A stretch of DNA of 64,000 bases from Elusimicrobiota bacterium (GCA_041694815.1 JBGFSC010000049.1:1-64000), one strand, 5' to 3'. Counted from the first letter of the stretch, positions 43,915-59,955 are shown. Made by a program: numbers and translations. The notes: generated by a model from the letters alone, not told the origin.

Positions 43915-44448
43915 TCAATTCCACCACTTCTTCCGCCAGGCCTTGTTCCACCACGATTTAAGGGGCACCATGGTCTGGGTATGCCAGCCGGATTGGTTCA
44001 ATTCCCAGACATGGGACCAGACCTCCTCCCAGCTCTTTCCCCCGTTCCAGACCAGATAATCCCAATCGCCCGGCACCGACGCCGCCGAGCTGGCCCAGGC
44101 CCATTTCCCGATGCTCTTAAGCTCGCCGTTCAAACGCGGGCTGCGCACCCAGACCCAGCTTCCGGCCGGCCATTCCCACCACCACTTCCCGTTTTTCATC
44201 CCCTTGAAGACGAAATGCGACGAGGTGGCCTTGACGCCCTTTTGGTTGCGAATCCAGGCGGCCTTCTTGTAGAGCTCTTCCCAATCCGGGGCGTCGACCC
44301 AGATCATCATGTCCCACGGGCCGGTGACGAGCCAGGCGCCGATTGCCTCCTCCCATCCCTGGGCTTGCTTCCATAGCTTTTCGCTGACTTCGCGATCCGC
44401 CTGGACCAACAAATAGGCGCTGCGCTTAGACCACTCCTTCGTTTTCAT
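43915..44448 (-). CDS. Trp-rich protein with two Lrp/AsnC ligand-binding-like modules
   Basis: VTGPWDMMIWV and VPGDWDYLVW; 27 Trp in 177 aa; AGGAGG SD. Confidence 0.6.
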   Translation of the reverse strand: MKTKEWSKRSAYLLVQADREVSEKLWKQAQGWEEAIGAWLVTGPWDMMIWVDAPDWEELYKKAAWIRNQKGVKATSSHFVFKGMKNGKWWWEWPAGSWVWVRSPRLNGELKSIGKWAWASSAASVPGDWDYLVWNGGKSWEEVWSHVWELNQSGWHTQTMVPLKSWWNKAWRKKWWN

Positions 44449-51554: not shown

Positions 51555-52367
51555 TCAGCGCGACAGCAATCCGGCGTCGATGATAAACGGCGAGCCCGTG
51601 ATGTAGCGCGCCTTCTCCGAGGCCAGATACACGACGGCCTGGGCCACGTCCTCCGGCTCGATCCAAGGCACGGGCAATAGATTTCCCGCCGAACGCTCGG
51701 CGATCTCGCGGGGGCTTAAGCCCTCCATTTCCGCCAGGCCGTCGTTCATCGGCGTGTTGACCCCGGTCGGGTGCAGCGAGACGACGCGGATGCCGTAGGG
51801 TGCCAGCTCGATCGCCCAGGACTTGGTCAGCCCCGTCAGGCCCCATTTGGAGGCGGCGTAATGGCTGAGCCTTCCCATGCCGCGCAGTCCGCCGACGGAG
51901 GAGTTATTGATGATCACGCCGGATTTCTGCGCGATCATGAGGGGAATCACCCGGCGCGCCACGAGCCAGGCGCCTTTAAGGTTGATGTCCAGCATCATGT
52001 CCCACTGCTCTTCCGTGAGCTCATGGGCGAGCCCGTAGGCGCAGATCCCGGCGTTGTTGAACAAGAGATCGATGCGGCCGAATCTCTTGCGCGCCGAATC
52101 GACCGCGCGTCCGACGGCTTTGTCATCGCGCACGTCGGCCTCGAAAGTCAGGCATCGCGCGCCCAAGGAGGCGCAGGCCTTGGCGAGTGATTTCAGATCC
52201 TCTGGCGATCCTAGCTTGTACGCCGGATACTTGAGCGCTCGCGCCACGTCCAGGGCCACGATGTCCATGCCCTCCGCGGCCAGGGCGAGGGCGGCCGCTC
52301 GGCCCTGCCCGTGAGCCGCGCCCGTGACAAGGCCGACCTTACCGCCCAGCTCTTTCTTTCTTGCCAT
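51555..52367 (-). CDS. SDR oxidoreductase resembling the mycofactocin-coupled (carveol dehydrogenase-like) subfamily
   Basis: TGAAHGQGR, insertion YPAYKLGSPEDL, YAASK, HPTGVNTPM. Confidence 0.8.
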   Translation of the reverse strand: MARKKELGGKVGLVTGAAHGQGRAAALALAAEGMDIVALDVARALKYPAYKLGSPEDLKSLAKACASLGARCLTFEADVRDDKAVGRAVDSARKRFGRIDLLFNNAGICAYGLAHELTEEQWDMMLDINLKGAWLVARRVIPLMIAQKSGVIINNSSVGGLRGMGRLSHYAASKWGLTGLTKSWAIELAPYGIRVVSLHPTGVNTPMNDGLAEMEGLSPREIAERSAGNLLPVPWIEPEDVAQAVVYLASEKARYITGSPFIIDAGLLSR

Positions 52368-52893
52368 CGGGAGCGCAGTAGGGCTGCAGGTATTCGTCGA
52401 GGTCCACGCGAAGCGCGTTGTTGAAGACGTTGGTCGCGATCATCATGCCGCCGAAGGCGGTCAGAGCCACGATCTCGGCAGGCTTCAGGAACCGGGCCAG
52501 CCGGGCGTAAAGCTCATCGTTTACCCCATTGGAATCCTTGGCCAATTGCCGGCCGTAATCGACCACGGCCTCTTCTTTCTCGTCGAGCTTGAGCGAACCC
52601 GGATCCTCCCCGGAGTCGATGAGGATGCGGCGGAAGAACGTGGAGCAGATGAGGCAGTCGGTCTGCGAGGAGATGGCGTGCACGAACAGGGTGGCTGCCC
52701 GCTCGCCGAGAAATCCCGCGACCTCGGCCTGCAAGGGATACCATTGCATCAGGGCCGCGAGCGCCGTCGGGCTATGCCCGAGCGTACGTTTCATATTGGT
52801 GACCCGGCCGTGCGCCGCCTTCTGCCGGTCGTATTCGGCGCGCGAGGCCGCGCCCGCGCTCTCGTATTCGAGGGGAGGGATGCGCGCCGTCAC
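52339..52893 (-). CDS. AhpD/carboxymuconolactone decarboxylase family protein
   Basis: LGHSP, ISSQTDCLIC, NVFNNAL.VDLD. Confidence 0.75.
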   Translation of the reverse strand: MTARIPPLEYESAGAASRAEYDRQKAAHGRVTNMKRTLGHSPTALAALMQWYPLQAEVAGFLGERAATLFVHAISSQTDCLICSTFFRRILIDSGEDPGSLKLDEKEEAVVDYGRQLAKDSNGVNDELYARLARFLKPAEIVALTAFGGMMIATNVFNNALRVDLDEYLQPYCAPDGKKERAGR

Positions 52894-53945
52894 TGCAGCA
52901 TGCGCCGGCGGACCAGCTCGAGCACCTTCTGGTAGCCGCCCAGGAATTGATCCAAGGTGTGCACGGAGGCGCCGTAGCGCACGAACTCCTCTGGCTTCAT
53001 CCCGTTTTCGTCGTAAGCCTTTCTAAAATCGGCGAAGCCGTTCTCGAGCGCGGCGAGCACGCGGGGTTCGACGGGTTGCTCGAGCGTCCGGGAGACCGGA
53101 ATCGAGGAGTCGTTGAACTGCTTCCACCAGGCGTAGGGGATCGACTGGACTATCCCCTCGCCGATGAGCTCCGACCAATGCAGGTGATGCCGATAGGCGG
53201 CGACCAGGAGCTTGGCGCGGAACTTGCGGCGCTTAAACACTTGCCGGGCCTTCTTGAACACCGCGATGCCGGCCCAATTGAGGAAGCCCGGGTCTATGGA
53301 GACCTTCTCCCGCTCCATGATGCGCTTTAGATGATCGTCCAACCGTCCGACCATGAGCGTTACATAAGGCTGCGGCGGGACCTTGGCCCTCTTGAGGCCG
53401 CGCTCCATGGCCTCGGCGCAGGCGACGGCCTGCGGGAGCGTGAAGCTCACCGTCGCGTTGACCGGCACGCCTTCTGCGGTGAGCGCCTCGATGGCCTCCA
53501 ATCCCTCCGCCGTCGCGGGGGCCTTGATGGCGATATTGGGCGCTAGCCCCGCCAGATGGCGGCCATGCTCGAGCATGCGCTCGGGACTGCGGTAATATTT
53601 CGGGCTCACCTGCACCGAGAGATAGCCCTTCTCCCCCCCGGTCTTCTGGTGGACGGGCGCCAAGAGCGCCGCCGCGTCCACGGCTACTCGTTCGATAAGC
53701 TTCCAGGCGATCTCATCCTCGCTGTCCTTGGGGTTCTTGCGGATGATTTCCGAGAGCGTCGGCATCCAGGTCTCGGGGTCGTTTTCCAGCGCCGAGCCCA
53801 CGATCACCGGGTTGGAGGTGGCGCCGACGGCCCCCTGCTCTACCGCGTCGCGCAGCTCTTTTAGGTGGCAGGAATCGTTCCAAAAATCGACCCCCAATGC
53901 CTGGGTCCCTCCCAACGGCGTCGCCTTCTTCGTCTTTGTCAGCAT
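52890..53945 (-). CDS. Transaldolase family protein (non-canonical)
   Basis: WNDS, GATSNP, IAIKAPAT (Schiff-base Lys), NATVSF, VGRLDD. Confidence 0.85.
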   Translation of the reverse strand: MLTKTKKATPLGGTQALGVDFWNDSCHLKELRDAVEQGAVGATSNPVIVGSALENDPETWMPTLSEIIRKNPKDSEDEIAWKLIERVAVDAAALLAPVHQKTGGEKGYLSVQVSPKYYRSPERMLEHGRHLAGLAPNIAIKAPATAEGLEAIEALTAEGVPVNATVSFTLPQAVACAEAMERGLKRAKVPPQPYVTLMVGRLDDHLKRIMEREKVSIDPGFLNWAGIAVFKKARQVFKRRKFRAKLLVAAYRHHLHWSELIGEGIVQSIPYAWWKQFNDSSIPVSRTLEQPVEPRVLAALENGFADFRKAYDENGMKPEEFVRYGASVHTLDQFLGGYQKVLELVRRRMLQ

Positions 53946-54817
53946 CCGATGGCCTTCCTGAGATATTCTCGGCCCTTGCGGGCGTACTCCAAGGGGTTGG
54001 CTTTCGCTGGGTCCTGCTCGGCCTCCACCACCAGCCAACCCTCATAATCCTTCTTTTTGAGCAGTTCGAAAATGGGGCGGTAATCGATGCACCCGTCGCC
54101 GGGCACCGTGAATACGCCCTCGCGCACCGCCTGCTCGAAGCTATAGCCCCGCGCGCGGGCCCTCTCGGCCACCTCCGGGCGCACGTCCTTTAAATGGACA
54201 TGGACGACCCGGTCCAAATGCCGCCCGATGACCGAGACCGGATCCATGCCGGCGAAGGCCATATGCCCGGTGTCGGCGAGCAGGCGCAGCTTCCTCGTCA
54301 TGGACATCAGACGGTCGAGCTCGGCCTCGTTCTGAATCACCGTGCCCATATGGTGGTGGTAGGCCGTCTGAAGGCCGAGGCCCTCTCCCAATTTCGCCAG
54401 GCGCTCGAGCCCCGAGGCGAGGCGCTCCCATTGCTCTTGCGTCAAGGGTTGCGCGTCGAAGCGCAGCGGGACCCCGCTGCGCTCGTAGACGCGCCCGCTA
54501 CACTCGGCCACGATGGCCACGCGGCTTCCCATCTCCGTGAGCAAGCGCGCGTGCTCGAGGAATCTTTTTCCCTCTTCTTCTACGCTTTTCGAAAGCAGGT
54601 AGCAGCTATGCCAGCCAGAAGCAAGCGCAAGCCGGTGTTGCGATAAAAGGGCCTTGAGCGCGGAGGGCTGCCTCGGGAATTTATGGCCCAATTCGGTGCC
54701 CGCGTAGCCGGCCTCGCGCATCTCGCTCAAGCATTGCTCGAGCGGGATCGAGCCGCCGAGATCCCGGAAGTCGTCGTTGCTCCAACCGATCGGCTGGGCC
54801 GCTATCCGAACCTTCAT
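53939..54817 (-). CDS. iolE: myo-inosose-2 dehydratase
   Basis: PIGWSNDD, GTELG, YHHHMGT, DTGH, VHLKD, FTVPGDG, VEAEQDP. Confidence 0.95.
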   Translation of the reverse strand: MKVRIAAQPIGWSNDDFRDLGGSIPLEQCLSEMREAGYAGTELGHKFPRQPSALKALLSQHRLALASGWHSCYLLSKSVEEEGKRFLEHARLLTEMGSRVAIVAECSGRVYERSGVPLRFDAQPLTQEQWERLASGLERLAKLGEGLGLQTAYHHHMGTVIQNEAELDRLMSMTRKLRLLADTGHMAFAGMDPVSVIGRHLDRVVHVHLKDVRPEVAERARARGYSFEQAVREGVFTVPGDGCIDYRPIFELLKKKDYEGWLVVEAEQDPAKANPLEYARKGREYLRKAIGC

Positions 54818-54818
54818 C

Positions 54819-56684
54819 TCAGTAATAAAACCTCTGGCGTTTCGCCTTAGCGACGTAATCCGCGCGCGAGCGCCGCACCGAGGCGGGCCTGGAGACCTCG
54901 GCCACCGGGACATCCCACCAGGAAAAGCCCGGCACGAAGCGGTCGGGGTCGACGGGGACGTGGATGAGGGCCGTGCGCGGCTGCTCGCGCGCCTCGCGCA
55001 GGGCGTGGGCCAGCGAGTCGCGGTCCTTGGCCGACCAAGTCGCGGCCCCTAGGCTCGCCGCGTTGGAGACGAAGTCGAGCGCGAGGGTCGGCCCGGTCAA
55101 TCGGCCGGTCGCGGCCTCGCGGTGGCGGAACTCGTTGCCGAAGCCGGGCCCCGCCGTGTGCCGCTGCAGGTTGTGTATGCACTGGTAGCCGTGATTGTCG
55201 AGCAGCACGATCGTGATCTTGAGGCCCTCCTGCACCGCGGTCGCGATCTCGTGGTTGAGCATCAGGTAGCTGCCGTCCCCAACGGCGGCGTAGACCTCGC
55301 GGTCGGGCCGGGCCATCTTGATCCCCAGGGCCCCGGCGATCTCGTAACCCATGCAGGAATAGCCGTATTCCGAATGGTAGTCCCCGGGCGCCTTCGAGCG
55401 CCACAGCTTATGCAGGTCTCCCGGCAATCCGCCGGCGGCGTGCACGAGGATCGAGTTCTCATCGAGCGCCTCGTTGAGTACCGAGATCACCTCGGCCTGC
55501 GACATCCGCGCGCCTGCGGGAGGCTTTACGATCGCGGCATAGCGGCGCTCCCAGTCCTCCTTGGCCGCGCGGATCTCCGCCGCGTAGGCTCGCGGGATTT
55601 TATGCCCTTGCAGTGCCCGACCCAAGGATTCGAGCGTGGCCTTGGCGTCCGCGGCGATGGGCAGCGCCCCGTGCTTACGGGCGTCGAAGGCGTTAAGATT
55701 AATATTGATGAAGCGGACGCCTGGTTCCTGGAACTGCGTCTTGGAGGCCGTGGTAAAATCGGAGTACCGGTGGCCCACCGACAGGACGAGATCGGCCTTA
55801 AGGGCGAGGCGGTTGGCGGCCGAATTGCCCGTCGCGCCGACGGCGCCGATGCAGAGCGGATGCGAATCCGGCAGAGCACCCTTGCCCGCCTGGGTGCATG
55901 CCACCGGGATGCCCAGGCGCTCGGCGAAGGCGCGCAGGGCCTCGGTCGCCTCCGAATAGTGAACACCACCGCCCGCGATGATGAGGGGCCGCCGCGCCGA
56001 GCGCAGCCAGCGCGCCGCCTCCCGAAGGGCCTCGCGCGAGGGCTGCGGACGAGGCACCGCGTAGACCCTTTTTTCGAAGAAGGCCGCCGGATAGTCGAAG
56101 GCCTCGGCCTGCACGTCCTCGGGAAGGCAGAGCGTCACCGCCCCGGTCTCGGCGGGGTCGGCCAGCACGCGCATGGCCTCGGGCAGCGCCGCTAGGATCT
56201 GCTCGGGACGGTTGATTCGGTCCCAATATCGCGAGACGGGCTTAAAGCAATCATTGACGCTTACATCCATGCTCTGCGGGAACTCGAGCTGCTGGAGCAC
56301 CGGATTGGGCCGGCGATTGGCGAAGATATCTCCGGGCAGTAGGAGGACCGGGATGCGGTTGATGGTCGCACCCGCCGCGCCGGTGACCATGTTGGTCGCG
56401 CCGGGGCCGACCGAGCTGGTGCAGGCCATGGCGCCGAGGCGGTGCAGGGTTTTCGAGTACGCCGCCGCGGCATGCACCATCGCCTGCTCGTTTTTCGGCT
56501 GGAAATAGGGAAGCTCCCGGCCGCCGCGCTCCTCCAAGGCCTGGCCGAGGCCCGCCACGTTGCCGTGGCCGAAAATCCCGAATACCCCGCGGATGAGCCG
56601 ATGCTCCGCGCCGTCGCGCGAGACGTATTGCCGCTTGAGGAACTCCACCATGGCCTGGCCCATCGTCAGGCGGATCGTCCTCAT
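54819..56684 (-). CDS. iolD: 3D-(3,5/4)-trihydroxycyclohexane-1,2-dione acylhydrolase (ThDP)
   Basis: GIFGHGNVAG, NEQAMVH, EYGYSCMGYEI, GDGSYLM, WWDVPV. Confidence 0.96.
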   Translation of the reverse strand: MRTIRLTMGQAMVEFLKRQYVSRDGAEHRLIRGVFGIFGHGNVAGLGQALEERGGRELPYFQPKNEQAMVHAAAAYSKTLHRLGAMACTSSVGPGATNMVTGAAGATINRIPVLLLPGDIFANRRPNPVLQQLEFPQSMDVSVNDCFKPVSRYWDRINRPEQILAALPEAMRVLADPAETGAVTLCLPEDVQAEAFDYPAAFFEKRVYAVPRPQPSREALREAARWLRSARRPLIIAGGGVHYSEATEALRAFAERLGIPVACTQAGKGALPDSHPLCIGAVGATGNSAANRLALKADLVLSVGHRYSDFTTASKTQFQEPGVRFININLNAFDARKHGALPIAADAKATLESLGRALQGHKIPRAYAAEIRAAKEDWERRYAAIVKPPAGARMSQAEVISVLNEALDENSILVHAAGGLPGDLHKLWRSKAPGDYHSEYGYSCMGYEIAGALGIKMARPDREVYAAVGDGSYLMLNHEIATAVQEGLKITIVLLDNHGYQCIHNLQRHTAGPGFGNEFRHREAATGRLTGPTLALDFVSNAASLGAATWSAKDRDSLAHALREAREQPRTALIHVPVDPDRFVPGFSWWDVPVAEVSRPASVRRSRADYVAKAKRQRFYY

Positions 56685-57487
56685 AACGGCGGCCGCCACC
56701 CCTGCTTCTTGGGATCGAGCGTCCATTCATGCTCGGGAAGGAACTTAAAGCCCCGGTACGGGTTGTCCTTAAGATGGCGCACCACCCAGAGATACCACAT
56801 CCCGTAGCCCGGGGCGGCGACCTGCGCATGGCCGACGCAGTTCAATATCTTGAGCGTGTCGCGCTGGCGCACCTTGTAGACTTCCTCGCCGAGCTCGCCG
56901 TGCCCATAGCCCTGCGGCTCGGTGAAGCGGTAATGGTAGATCTCGGCCTGCGGGTGCGTGTGGGGCGGGTAGCTCGACCAGCGCCCCGGATAGTTGACCA
57001 CCTCGCCCAGGACGAGATTGGCCTGGGGCCGGTTGTTCCAATCGAAGATGAGTCGGACATTGCGCAGCGCGGCCTCCTGGACCAAGCCCTTACCGCGGTA
57101 CTCGGACTCAAGCCCTTCGGGCAGGAACAGCTTGGGCTCGAAGCGTCGGCTGTTTTCCGCGCGCATCAGCGCCCATTCCACATCGCCCAACGCCTTAATA
57201 CACACGGGCGTCGACGGCCCCACGTGTAGAGCGGTCGGCTGCTCCTCGAACAGCGAGCGGCGCGACAGGCGGCTCCGGATGCCTCCCGCCTCGACCTCCA
57301 CCTCGCCGCCTAAGAGCAGCCAAGCCGATTCCTTGGGGTGCGTCTCGGAAATCGTATCGCCGGCCTTTAGCTTCCAAAAGCCGAGGTCCATGCCCGTGTC
57401 GCATTCCCGTTCGCCCTCCTCGGTCACCGCCGTGAATCCCGGAGGGAAGCCATCACGGAACCGGGTGATATGCGCCGGGCTATTCAC
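56681..57487 (-). CDS. iolB: 5-deoxy-glucuronate isomerase
   Basis: GRWSSYPPHTH, EIYHYRF, APGYGMWYLW. Confidence 0.92.
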   Translation of the reverse strand: MNSPAHITRFRDGFPPGFTAVTEEGERECDTGMDLGFWKLKAGDTISETHPKESAWLLLGGEVEVEAGGIRSRLSRRSLFEEQPTALHVGPSTPVCIKALGDVEWALMRAENSRRFEPKLFLPEGLESEYRGKGLVQEAALRNVRLIFDWNNRPQANLVLGEVVNYPGRWSSYPPHTHPQAEIYHYRFTEPQGYGHGELGEEVYKVRQRDTLKILNCVGHAQVAAPGYGMWYLWVVRHLKDNPYRGFKFLPEHEWTLDPKKQGWRPPL

Positions 57488-58491
57488 GCCAGCTCCGACA
57501 GGCGCACGGGGCGCTTCTCCTGGAACGATTTCTTGGCCGCCAGCCCTAGCAGCACGGCCTGGAGCCCATCCTCGCCGCCAACGGGCGGCGCGGCCTTGTC
57601 CCGAAGGGAGTCGACAAAGGCCTGCATCTCGTCACGATAGGCCTGGGCATAGCGTTCGATGAAGAAATGATGCGGCGGGTCCTTGCGCGAGCCCTCGGGC
57701 CCCCAATGCTCGACGCCGTTGGGCCCGACGTTGGAGGACTTAGCGCAGCCTCCCGAGCCGAACACCTCCACGCGCTGGTCATAGCCGTAAGCCGCTCTTC
57801 GCGAATTATCGATGGCGCCGATGGCCCCTCCCTTGTAGCGGAGGGTGATGAGCGCCGTGTCCACGTCTCCCAAGCGCCCGATCTCGGGATCGACGAGCAC
57901 GGCTCCCGCGGCATAGACCTCCTCGATTTCGTCTTGGATCACGAAGCGGGCCATGTCGAAGTCATGGATGGCCATATCCAGAAACAGCCCTCCGGACACC
58001 CGGATATATTCCGAGGGCGGTGGCTGCGGGTCACGGCTGGTGATGCGCACCAGCTGCGGCGAGCCGACCTCGCCACGGCGCACCAGCTCGGCCACGCGCT
58101 TGAATTGCGCGTCGAATCGCCGGTTGAAGCCCACCTGCAGGCGGACTCCATGCCTGTCGACCGCGGCGAGGGCCCGGCGGATGGCGGAAATCTCGAGGTC
58201 GATGGGCTTTTCGCAGAAGACGTGCTTTCCCGCCGCGGCGGCCTCCTCGATGAGCCGGGCGTGGGTGTCCGTGGAGGAACAGATGACGATCGCCTCGATC
58301 TTGCCGTCCCCTAGCATCGGGCGATGATCGGCCAACGCTTGCGCCCCCCCGGCCTCCGAGGCAAGCGCGCGGGCGGCCTCCAGGTTGATGTCCGAGACGG
58401 CCTGAAGGCGGGCGCCCCCGACGCTCCGGAAAAGGTTCAAGGCATGGACCCGGCCGATGCGCCCGGCGCCGATGACGCCGATGCCGATCAT
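57484..58491 (-). CDS. iolG: Inositol 2-dehydrogenase
   Basis: GAGRIG, CEKP, GFNRRFD, SGGLFLDMAIHDFD, YGYDQRVE. Confidence 0.93.
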   Translation of the reverse strand: MIGIGVIGAGRIGRVHALNLFRSVGGARLQAVSDINLEAARALASEAGGAQALADHRPMLGDGKIEAIVICSSTDTHARLIEEAAAAGKHVFCEKPIDLEISAIRRALAAVDRHGVRLQVGFNRRFDAQFKRVAELVRRGEVGSPQLVRITSRDPQPPPSEYIRVSGGLFLDMAIHDFDMARFVIQDEIEEVYAAGAVLVDPEIGRLGDVDTALITLRYKGGAIGAIDNSRRAAYGYDQRVEVFGSGGCAKSSNVGPNGVEHWGPEGSRKDPPHHFFIERYAQAYRDEMQAFVDSLRDKAAPPVGGEDGLQAVLLGLAAKKSFQEKRPVRLSELA

Positions 58492-58620
58492 GCGCGCATT
58501 GTAACATTCTCCACCCGCGAGCATCCTAGGCCGAAGGGCTCGTATCGACCTGGGTCCTGCGCCTCATCCATGCTCGAAACCCTCTCTGCTACAATCGCTT
58601 CACTCGCCGATACCAATCCG

Positions 58621-59955
58621 ATGTTGACTCTATTTGCCGTTTTAGCGAGCAGCGGCGTGCTCAAGAGCACGCCGGCAGCCATAGCTCCGCCCGTCGTCCA
58701 CGCGGAGGCAGCGGCGGAGCAGGGCTCGCCCTACCGGGAATTCGAGCGCAAACTCCGCCGATGGGAGCCGATCGAGGGCGCCGAGGCCTTGGACGCCTTC
58801 TACGACGGCTCCGCCTCCAAATCGCCATGGGGAGACCCGGTCGCCGGGCACAAACTGCGCATGATGTCGGAGCAGGCCTCTCCGGGGGACCCCGGCAAGG
58901 CCCTGGCCAAGCTTTTCGACGCCATCCTTCGACAAATAAAGACCGTTTACAGCCGCGGACTCTGGTCCTCCGAGGTCCAAGCCGTCGAGGGGGTGTTCGC
59001 GCAGGCCAGCGCGCGATACGAGGAATGGAAAAAGAACGGGGGAAACGGCACCCTCGATGAGAAATTCCGCGCCCTCAAGGAGGCCATGTCCTACCTGTCG
59101 GAGGTCTCGGCCACGCTGGAGGCGCTCGAAAATAAAGACAGCATAGAGCCGGAAAAAATCCGCATCCTGGACCAGCAGCTCAAGGCCCTGGCCATCGCCG
59201 TGGGCATTCCCCCGGTCGAGGCCCAGACCCTGGTGGCCGCGGCGATTTCCCGCGTGGCTCCTCCCCAAGAGATCCAAGGCGACATCCTCGGTCAGATCAG
59301 CGCCGCCCGCGGCTTCATGCGTCAGAATCAGCTACTCCAAAAATACTCGGACCGCCTGACCGCGCTCGAGACGGCGCTGCGCCTGGGCATGTTCAAGGAC
59401 GCGCGCGCCATGGCCGAGCATTTCTTCGACGGCGCCAACCTCATCGACCAGTTCATGTTTCATCCGGCGGTCATCGTGATGAGCGATCTGCTCGAGCAAC
59501 TTAATCCCTTCGGCAACACCAACGGCATCTTCCTTTCCAACATCCAGATCCTCTCCTTGGAGCTGCATGCCTTCGGCGACATCAAGACGCCCGAGGATTT
59601 CGAGAGGCGGCGTCGGGACCTGGCGCGTGGCCTCGAGACGATCGGCGCCGTCGTGCCGTTGTCGGAGGCCGACGCCAAGCTCCTTGCCTCCGGCAGGGAT
59701 TGGCAGCGCAACGGGGGCCTGATCCAGAGCATAGGCAATTTCACCGGCATGCTAGCGCCTACGGCCCTGTGGCTCAAGGGGCCGCTGCTCACGGTCGTGG
59801 GCCTGGGTGGGATTCTGCCGTTTTTCGGGAAATTCATCTACGGCTGGGGCAACCACCAGGAGCGCATCGCGCGAGGCGACGATAGCCGCCCGGCGAAAAA
59901 CCCCAAGCTCTGGGGCGAGCTGATCCGCAATCTCGCCCGCCGCTTCTTCCGCTAA
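58621..59955 (+). CDS. Hypothetical helical protein with N-terminal hydrophobic leader and C-terminal TM
   Basis: Long ORF with host-like codon usage; no recognised domain; start uncertain. Confidence 0.6.
   Translation: MLTLFAVLASSGVLKSTPAAIAPPVVHAEAAAEQGSPYREFERKLRRWEPIEGAEALDAFYDGSASKSPWGDPVAGHKLRMMSEQASPGDPGKALAKLFDAILRQIKTVYSRGLWSSEVQAVEGVFAQASARYEEWKKNGGNGTLDEKFRALKEAMSYLSEVSATLEALENKDSIEPEKIRILDQQLKALAIAVGIPPVEAQTLVAAAISRVAPPQEIQGDILGQISAARGFMRQNQLLQKYSDRLTALETALRLGMFKDARAMAEHFFDGANLIDQFMFHPAVIVMSDLLEQLNPFGNTNGIFLSNIQILSLELHAFGDIKTPEDFERRRRDLARGLETIGAVVPLSEADAKLLASGRDWQRNGGLIQSIGNFTGMLAPTALWLKGPLLTVVGLGGILPFFGKFIYGWGNHQERIARGDDSRPAKNPKLWGELIRNLARRFFR

Follow-up and report, generated by a model that had tools for sequence, protein, structure and literature searches.

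How does a bacterium finish the breakdown of myo-inositol when its inositol operon carries the genes of the upper pathway and, in the place of a kinase and an aldolase, a gene of the transaldolase family? We address this question for a 64,000-nucleotide (nt) stretch of the Elusimicrobiota bacterium GCA_041694815.1 (JBGFSC010000049.1:1-64000; hereafter the window), in which the minus-strand run 51555..58491 consists of seven abutting or overlapping genes: iolG, iolB, iolD, iolE, a gene of the transaldolase/fructose-6-phosphate aldolase (TAL/FSA) family, an AhpD-like gene and one that encodes an SDR (short-chain dehydrogenase/reductase). A sequence-only reading of the window had described this run, all of which is present with junctions ranging from a 29-nt overlap to a 1-nt gap, and had proposed that its last three genes form a module replacing iolC, iolJ and iolA. 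The part of that proposal which concerns IolC and IolJ passes the genomic tests applied here, and we consider it probable (roughly three chances in four) that the transaldolase-fold enzyme replaces both proteins by cleaving unphosphorylated 5-dehydro-2-deoxy-D-gluconate (DKG), whereas the part that gives the role of IolA to the AhpD-like/SDR pair does not hold as a conserved arrangement.

The canonical pathway of Bacillus subtilis and Anaerostipes, IolG-E-D-B-C-J-A (PMC8355322; papers are cited here by PMC number), shares IolG, IolE, IolD and IolB with the window, and malonate semialdehyde is the expected C3 product. Compared with this pathway and with its IolC-DUF2090 variant (PMC9007349), the host genome is without IolC, IolJ, DUF2090 and IolA. 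The phosphorylated route gives dihydroxyacetone phosphate, whereas the cut predicted on unphosphorylated DKG would give fructose 6-phosphate (F6P).

Genome Content of the Host

The absence of iolC, iolJ and iolA, described earlier for the window, extends to the whole genome (2.77 Mb, 97.82% complete). For IolC, the best profile score is 61.6 bits against a cut-off of 300, tblastn searches of the genome with two IolC proteins returned nothing at an E-value of 1e-8, and the three PfkB proteins of the genome comprise one HldE kinase and two that reach at most 61.6 bits on the IolC profile. Neither the IolJ-type class II aldolase family PF01116 nor DUF2090 has a match genome-wide, and IolA (TIGR01722) has none at an E-value of 1e-120, the best of seven aldehyde dehydrogenases reaching 346.6 of 448.5 bits. 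A second transaldolase, of the canonical Glu/Phe type, is encoded on contig C51 and reaches 484 bits on the PRK03343 model (cut-off 367), so that the TAL gene of the operon is dispensable for housekeeping.

Linkage to iol Genes and Distribution Relative to IolC

Linkage was assessed in the best 80 of 333 genome loci that hold a relative of the TAL protein, which span Myxococcota, Acidobacteriota, Verrucomicrobiota, Elusimicrobiota, Lentisphaerota, Bdellovibrionota, Latescibacterota, Krumholzibacteriia and SAR324. The transaldolase clade proves to be linked with iol genes across this set: iolB, iolD or iolE is present in 59 of the 80 loci (IolE in 56, IolD in 50 and IolB in 41, a few of these matches being weak), and a PfkB/IolC kinase in none. 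An aldehyde dehydrogenase is present in 32 of the 80 loci, and all four neighbouring aldehyde dehydrogenases that were tested (three from these loci and one from genome G283) are of the IolA type and score over its cut-off; with an IolA-type dehydrogenase adjoining the TAL gene, one would still expect malonate semialdehyde to be formed. When the open reading frames (ORFs) of the 80 loci were clustered, no enzyme gene apart from iol genes and IolA was shared across phyla. Two proteins combine IolE and the TAL domain in a single chain (P0121, 655 amino acids (aa), and P0271, 647 aa); each is represented by one sequence on a short contig and may be a sequencing artefact. In several Acidobacteriota loci (L019, L022, L024, L038 and others), the TAL-like gene is remote from iolD and directly preceded by a gene for an alkaline phosphatase resembling PafA (398.7 bits against a cut-off of 650), a neighbour that may tie the TAL gene to phytate use.

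The distribution of the clade relative to IolC was then considered at the level of genomes. Fifty of the 80 carrier genomes were tested (the other 30 are mostly Opitutaceae), with IolD present in 47 and IolC over the cut-off in 2. An independent sample came from an IolD search of four phyla (251, 251, 301 and 301 genomes) that was blind to the TAL clade, and that gave 59 IolD positives, or 55 after subtraction of four centre genomes; two of the 55 are also in the earlier carrier set. Counted as IolC-positive were 24 genomes (22 over the cut-off, together with two whose IolC matches of 298 and 285 bits adjoin iolD; the next score is 192), and as clade-positive those with at least 414 bits (the next score is 111). 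On this basis the clade occurs in 0/24 IolC-positive and 20/31 IolC-negative iolD genomes, as well as in 0/25 iolD-negative controls, with a Fisher p value of 3e-7 for clade versus IolC that is overstated, as kin are not independent. The anticorrelation with iolC that the sequence-only reading had led one to expect is thus found in this sample, with three co-occurrences outside it that are discussed below. In 17 of the 20 clade-positive genomes the TAL gene lies at most 4 kb from iolD, and the division is also seen within a single phylum, Myxococcota (that of genome G001), with 16 genomes carrying IolC only and 6 the clade only.

The 11 genomes with neither system are all Acidobacteriota; nine have no IolB-family match, and two have one at 101-110 bits, a level close to that of the additional KduI-family copies seen in other genomes (86-99 bits). 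When these 11 and one IolC genome without IolB are dropped, 43 of 43 IolD+IolB genomes carry exactly one system (23 IolC only, 20 the clade only), the IolB threshold of 116 bits behind this count having been chosen after the scores were seen. A third substitute was sought in nine iolD regions of the 11 genomes, with no obvious candidate. The nine Acidobacteriota with iolD and without IolB, IolC or the TAL clade (G932, G979, G989, G1009, G1036, G1063, G1081, G1090 and G1101) possibly have another fate for 5-deoxy-glucuronate. In the phylum of the window itself the clade is rare, with three clade-level matches among 401 genomes, plus two distant relatives.

Fold and Active-Site Residues

The enzyme is encoded at 52890..53945 on the minus strand (351 aa) and is best described as a Gln/Met-type transaldolase-fold enzyme and predicted DKG:glyceraldehyde-3-phosphate glyceronetransferase, an assignment that draws on its PF00923 match, fold, residues and distribution. 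It scores below every NCBIfam cut-off for transaldolase or F6P aldolase, despite 153 bits on PF00923. At least 5,000 relatives were obtained at an E-value of 0.001 among 8,000 candidates scored, of which the best 120 (the TAL protein itself aside) are 56-71% identical and are annotated merely as "transaldolase (family protein)". Cultured bacteria with a homologue include Stigmatella aurantiaca (WP_013377565.1) and Hyalangium gracile (WP_224250036.1). The AlphaFold2 model (mean predicted local distance difference test score 96) lies nearest to the large-type transaldolases, with a Z score of 38.4 and a root-mean-square deviation of 2.1 Å over 315 residues for the Neisseria enzyme, and has the TIM-barrel transaldolase fold with its Schiff-base lysine, Lys141, which is present in 108/108 clade sequences.

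These 108 sequences, some of them duplicates, score at least 400 bits on the clade profile; all have Asp24, Asn45, Gln112, Lys141, Asn163, Thr165, Arg201 and Arg252, and 107 have Met198. In the housekeeping controls, position 112 is Glu in 11/11 and position 198 is Phe in 10/11. The classical Glu plus Phe pair is therefore replaced in the clade by Gln112 and Met198. We take these positions to correspond to E96 and F178 of TalB, whose numbering comes from PDB titles and PMC3962226. Both phosphate-binding arginines (Arg201 and Arg252) are kept, with the adjacent Ser replaced by Ala250. Transaldolases pair Glu with Phe, and F6P aldolase pairs Gln59 with Tyr131 (PMC13259622, PMC3962226), such that the clade keeps the Gln of the aldolase pair and not its Tyr.

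A quick IQ-TREE analysis of 62 selected rows places the iol-linked sequences in one 46-row clade (Shimodaira-Hasegawa-like approximate likelihood ratio test support of 94), separated by a long branch from the housekeeping transaldolases and apart also from the Gln/Met relatives of other sugar clusters. The nearest neighbor of the window protein is from an Elusimicrobia metagenome-assembled genome (MAG), at 68% identity. A housekeeping identity for the operon gene was considered and rejected on the strength of the second canonical copy, the residues and the distribution. Two of the more distant relatives have neighborhoods of their own: on a Shinella plasmid, the Gln/Met gene is embedded in an acetoin-dehydrogenase-like E1/E2/E3 operon that also includes triose-phosphate isomerase (L267:7771-16313), and the other such gene is part of a different sugar cluster (genome G051, L278:6283-10157).

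Proposed Reaction and Alternatives

The operon would supply the upper myo-inositol pathway (IolG, IolE, IolD and IolB) as far as DKG. Read from C6, the structure of DKG works out as that of a 3S,4R ketohexose bearing an unsubstituted CH2OH group at one end and a carboxylate at the other, and the fructose-like 3S,4R diol is the stereochemistry that the transaldolase family requires (PMC3962226). Lys141 would react with the ketone at C5 of DKG to give a Schiff base, the free CH2OH being placed in the Asn163/Thr196 pocket, the conservation of which argues against a phosphorylated donor. Arg201 and Arg252 would hold first the carboxylate of DKG and next the phosphate of the acceptor; a retro-aldol step would release malonate semialdehyde, and the dihydroxyacetone (DHA) unit would pass to glyceraldehyde 3-phosphate (G3P) or erythrose 4-phosphate (E4P). 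With no Tyr at position 198, the bound DHA unit would escape hydrolysis and await an aldose phosphate. Gln112 stands for the catalytic Glu, and the carboxylate of the substrate itself is a candidate acid-base catalyst. In most carriers, IolA would then remove malonate semialdehyde. We judge it fairly likely that the overall reaction is DKG + G3P -> F6P + malonate semialdehyde by DHA transfer.

A number of observations weigh against a kinase-free cleavage of DKG by this enzyme, in addition to the late choice of the IolB threshold. Neither known acid-base residue (the Glu of transaldolases or the Tyr of F6P aldolase) is present in the clade, so that neither known catalytic scheme accounts for the reaction. 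The Gln/Met pair is not specific to inositol, since it is also found in relatives encoded among genes for other sugars (the Shinella plasmid and G051). The 21 of the 80 loci without nearby iolB, iolD or iolE are mostly from Vicinamibacteria and other Acidobacteriota, several of them on short contigs; most of the genomes are incomplete MAGs, and relatives are not independent. IolC and the clade occur together in G024, in G050 and on a Clavibacter plasmid, all outside the 55-genome sample, and some carriers, the host not among them, have fructokinase/IolC-like kinases below the cut-off (185-222 bits) that could phosphorylate DKG. Finally, the searches of the host genome identified neither a transporter nor a regulator for inositol, nor an enzyme acting on malonate semialdehyde; transporter, regulator, tautomerase and PafA queries taken from other loci gave weak matches or none there, and a PF03446 search gave weak, partial matches only.

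Taking these points into account, the alternative that fares best is that the enzyme is a DKG aldolase which, like F6P aldolase, releases free DHA for separate salvage. Gln112 is the residue of F6P aldolase (Gln59; PMC13259622), and the anticorrelation with IolC would fit such an enzyme equally well. We nevertheless consider this unlikely, since the Tyr131 proton shuttle is absent, a Phe-to-Tyr change being precisely what converts TalB into an aldolase (PMC3962226), since both phosphate-binding arginines are invariant, and since DHA kinase is rare (found in 6/49 carriers versus 1/24 IolC genomes, p 0.41, and not found in the host genome). All three of these features speak for transfer rather than release.

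A second possibility is that the enzyme has some other role in inositol, cyclitol or sugar metabolism, acting on a side substrate or in acceptor recycling, while an unrecognised factor handles DKG. The cases in which the full IolC route co-occurs with the clade (Clavibacter, G024 and G050) speak for this, as do the Gln/Met relatives in other sugar clusters and the lack of a known acid-base residue. The iol cluster of the Clavibacter plasmid NZ_CP021037.1 (L266:1-11092), for instance, combines iolC with a Gln/Met transaldolase that has the same residues, and also holds a DeoC-like aldolase gene and a gene of the tautomerase family; such co-occurrence suggests that the enzyme may have an added role, and it may be commoner in Actinomycetota and Bacillota, which lie outside the phyla sampled. 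As the sole explanation it appears rather unlikely when set against the partition of all 43 IolD+IolB genomes between IolC and the clade, and against the ORF clustering, which gave no further cross-phylum enzyme gene. That a hidden kinase makes DKG 6-phosphate, with the enzyme cleaving this product and replacing IolJ only, is very unlikely: the kinases below the cut-off and the three cases of IolC with the clade are compatible with it, yet there is no PfkB kinase at any of the 80 loci, the PfkB proteins of the host are HldE and two poor IolC matches, the residues of the C1-hydroxyl pocket are kept, and a substitute for IolJ would be expected beside IolC, where the clade is found in 0/24 genomes.

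Returning to kinase-free cleavage of DKG with DHA transfer, the cut alone would save no ATP, because regeneration of G3P from F6P needs phosphofructokinase (PFK). In the host, the only PFK found adjoins a LacD-like class I aldolase (C40:28958-30762), and no class II fructose-bisphosphate aldolase is present in the genome. This PFK carries the motifs GGED and PKTMDND, which we take to be the signature of a pyrophosphate-using enzyme. An ATP saving is possible in the host if its PFK is of the pyrophosphate type.

The AhpD-like/SDR Pair and Malonate Semialdehyde

The last two genes of the operon encode a peroxidase-related CxxC protein with an AhpD core (52339..52893, minus strand, 184 aa; weak match to TIGR01926, PDB matches 2oyo and 2prr, and Atlas clusters resembling carboxymuconolactone decarboxylase (CMD)) and a TIGR03971-like SDR with an NAD-covering insertion (51555..52367, minus strand, 270 aa; 298.8 bits, cut-off 300). 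We examined the best 80 of 205 metagenome loci holding a relative of the AhpD-like protein, 38 of which are at least 5 kb long. The CxxC motif is present in 80/80 of these homologues, and the same SDR (>55% identity) adjoins the AhpD-like gene in 55 of the 58 loci with room for it. None of the 80 loci contains iol or TAL genes, no third conserved gene was found beside the pair, and, conversely, none of the 80 TAL loci contains an AhpD-like gene, the best SDR match there being 36% identical. Since the pair is never beside iol or TAL genes and most carriers keep IolA (42/49 TAL-clade genomes), the two genes constitute a separate module, and a conserved role as replacement for IolA is not supported by these counts; what was added to the end of the operon is most likely a redox module independent of the pathway.

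In an alignment of 42 AhpD-like sequences, Cys80 and Cys83 are invariant. AhpD itself has a His four residues after the second Cys that serves as a proton relay. This His is missing here, Phe87 being invariant where 2oyo and 2prr have His. The top PDB matches of the SDR are mycobacterial SDRs of the carveol-dehydrogenase type, and its alignment with 3oec is ungapped across the NAD-covering insertion. In the mycofactocin-coupled SDRs of TIGR03971, with which the insertion is shared, it buries a non-exchangeable NAD (PMC5264612); in contrast to these, the window SDR has a CxxC AhpD-like gene as its partner, and its genome has no MftC (best score 88.8 of 265 bits; MftA and MftB were not searched for). 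One may speculate that the CxxC protein recharges the bound NAD of the SDR, as a mycofactocin-independent route. Two predictions of an SDR/AhpD-like complex both scored 0.00, which counts neither for nor against an interaction.

Independently of the alternatives weighed above, malonate semialdehyde might, in the host genome, be reduced by the SDR, yielding 3-hydroxypropionate, or be decarboxylated by the AhpD/CMD-like protein, as the sequence-only reading suggested. Both genes overlap with the end of the operon at a matching GC content at third codon positions (0.82-0.83, compared with 0.81-0.86 for the operon), the host has neither IolA nor a Tautomerase_2 protein, and a reductive 3-hydroxypropionate ending, by another enzyme family, is described for Mitsuokella (PMC7618129). 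We find this quite unlikely, given that the pair is conserved elsewhere and never beside iol or TAL genes, that the AhpD-like protein had no match in four other IolA-less TAL-clade genomes (a search without a positive control), that a buried NAD of the TIGR03971 type would hardly suit an enzyme that disposes of free NADH, and that the AhpD-like protein has a CxxC peroxidase-related core. Known malonate semialdehyde decarboxylases are of the tautomerase fold. A local recruitment of the pair to the pathway in the host genome alone may have occurred. Candidates for the removal of malonate semialdehyde in the host are a broad aldehyde dehydrogenase, the acylating dehydrogenase of contig C38, a gene in the unassembled 2% and the SDR. 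The C38 gene belongs to a bacterial microcompartment locus (C38:32675-39444) with DeoC, as well as a short RpiB-like ORF and shell-protein-like ORFs, both recognised by eye.

Gene Order and Flanking Features

The operon begins with iolG (57484..58491, 335 aa), an inositol 2-dehydrogenase (TIGR04380, 461 bits, cut-off 355), which is followed on the same minus strand by iolB (56681..57487, 268 aa), a divergent 5-deoxy-glucuronate isomerase that reaches 177.7 bits on PF04962 and 91.6 bits on TIGR04378, below the cut-off of 205. Homologues of this KduI/IolB-family protein, 43-61% identical, adjoin iolD in most loci. Next on this strand are iolD (54819..56684, 621 aa), a 3D-(3,5/4)-trihydroxycyclohexane-1,2-dione hydrolase (TIGR04377, 913 bits, cut-off 715), and iolE (53939..54817, 292 aa), a myo-inosose-2 dehydratase (TIGR04379, 389 bits, cut-off 290). 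The iolG/iolB, iolB/iolD and TAL/AhpD-like junctions are 4-nt overlaps, iolD/iolE is a 1-nt gap, iolE/TAL a 7-nt overlap, and AhpD-like/SDR the 29-nt overlap.

The sequence-only reading placed the seven genes behind one promoter. A sigma-70 scan gave no site, whereas an extended -10-like element, TG-n-TACAAT (58498..58506, minus strand), lies 6 nt before the iolG ATG; its promoter function is suggested by its sequence and position. This spacing is found genome-wide at 3.0% of 2,370 early ATGs versus 0.44% of 11,012 inner ATGs, and the element likely fits a single leaderless transcript starting at iolG. A terminator scan gave four terminator-like sites versus 5.1 expected.

The flanks of the operon hold no iolR-like regulator and no transporter. 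Upstream of iolG lies a divergent ORF of ~450 aa (58611-59955, plus strand) without a Pfam or NCBIfam match. Further away, the window encodes a protein of 177 aa (43915-44448, minus strand) that is very rich in Trp and has an Lrp/AsnC ligand-binding domain without matching a helix-turn-helix, and elsewhere in the genome fifteen radical-SAM-like matches fall on one contig (C48:4903-53214), most of them at 4.9-39 kb.

Relation to Known Systems

A close parallel is the sulfofructose transaldolase SftT/SqvA (PMC7491151; PDB 8bc2-8bc4), in which a transaldolase fold likewise replaces a kinase and an aldolase. The donor of SftT is an anionic ketohexose without a phosphate group, the DHA unit of which is passed on to G3P or E4P, freeing an anionic C3 aldehyde (PMC7491151). 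However, SftT is a protein of ~218 aa, whereas the window enzyme has 351 aa, the Gln/Met pair, a large-type fold nearest to the transaldolases of Neisseria and Corynebacterium, and 23-24% identity to BmSF-TAL; and SftT belongs to a sulfoquinovose cluster with a sulfonate donor, whereas the window enzyme lies among iol genes and is predicted to use a carboxylate donor. The window enzyme likely works in the manner of SftT while standing outside the SftT group. With the classical transaldolases (TalB and those of Neisseria and Corynebacterium) and FSA it has in common the fold, the Schiff-base Lys, the Asp, Asn and Thr sugar residues and the two arginines; it differs from them in having neither the Glu nor the Tyr, in scoring below the cut-off on all NCBIfam models, and in its long branch.

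In inositol catabolism, the known alternatives replace IolJ alone, namely DUF2090 (PMC9007349) and a proposed class II fructose-bisphosphate aldolase (PMC13311982). In the literature searched, which was mostly non-subscription, inositol catabolism is nowhere described as involving a transaldolase, and the word "transaldolase" is absent from the main text of PMC13311982, PMC13617567, PMC12482443, PMC8355322, PMC7618129, PMC9430895, PMC12838507 and PMC9007349. The genes iolG, iolE, iolD and iolB without iolC are reported for Megamonas (PMC13617567), where the one TAL_FSA protein among the entries listed has a locus number far from the iol genes and no link is claimed, and the largest inositol survey counts iolC among four essential core genes, ascribing gaps to incomplete sequence, assembly errors and frameshifts (PMC9430895).

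Conclusions

On balance, we lean toward the view that these genes represent a widespread and undescribed way of ending myo-inositol catabolism without the kinase, present in at least seven bacterial phyla. A new transaldolase-fold subfamily of the Gln/Met type, with neither known acid-base residue, would move DHA off a deoxy-keto-acid, possibly with the help of the substrate's carboxylate, and one ATP per inositol would be saved where PFK uses pyrophosphate, as the PFK motif of the host suggests. If this is correct, 20 of the 43 IolD+IolB genomes in four little-studied phyla would use a route that annotation has missed, and the family would include a natural transaldolase-fold enzyme outside the rule by which Glu goes with Phe and Gln with Tyr. 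The AhpD-like/SDR pair would be a lead of its own, to a dehydrogenase of the bound-NAD type in a setting without mycofactocin genes.

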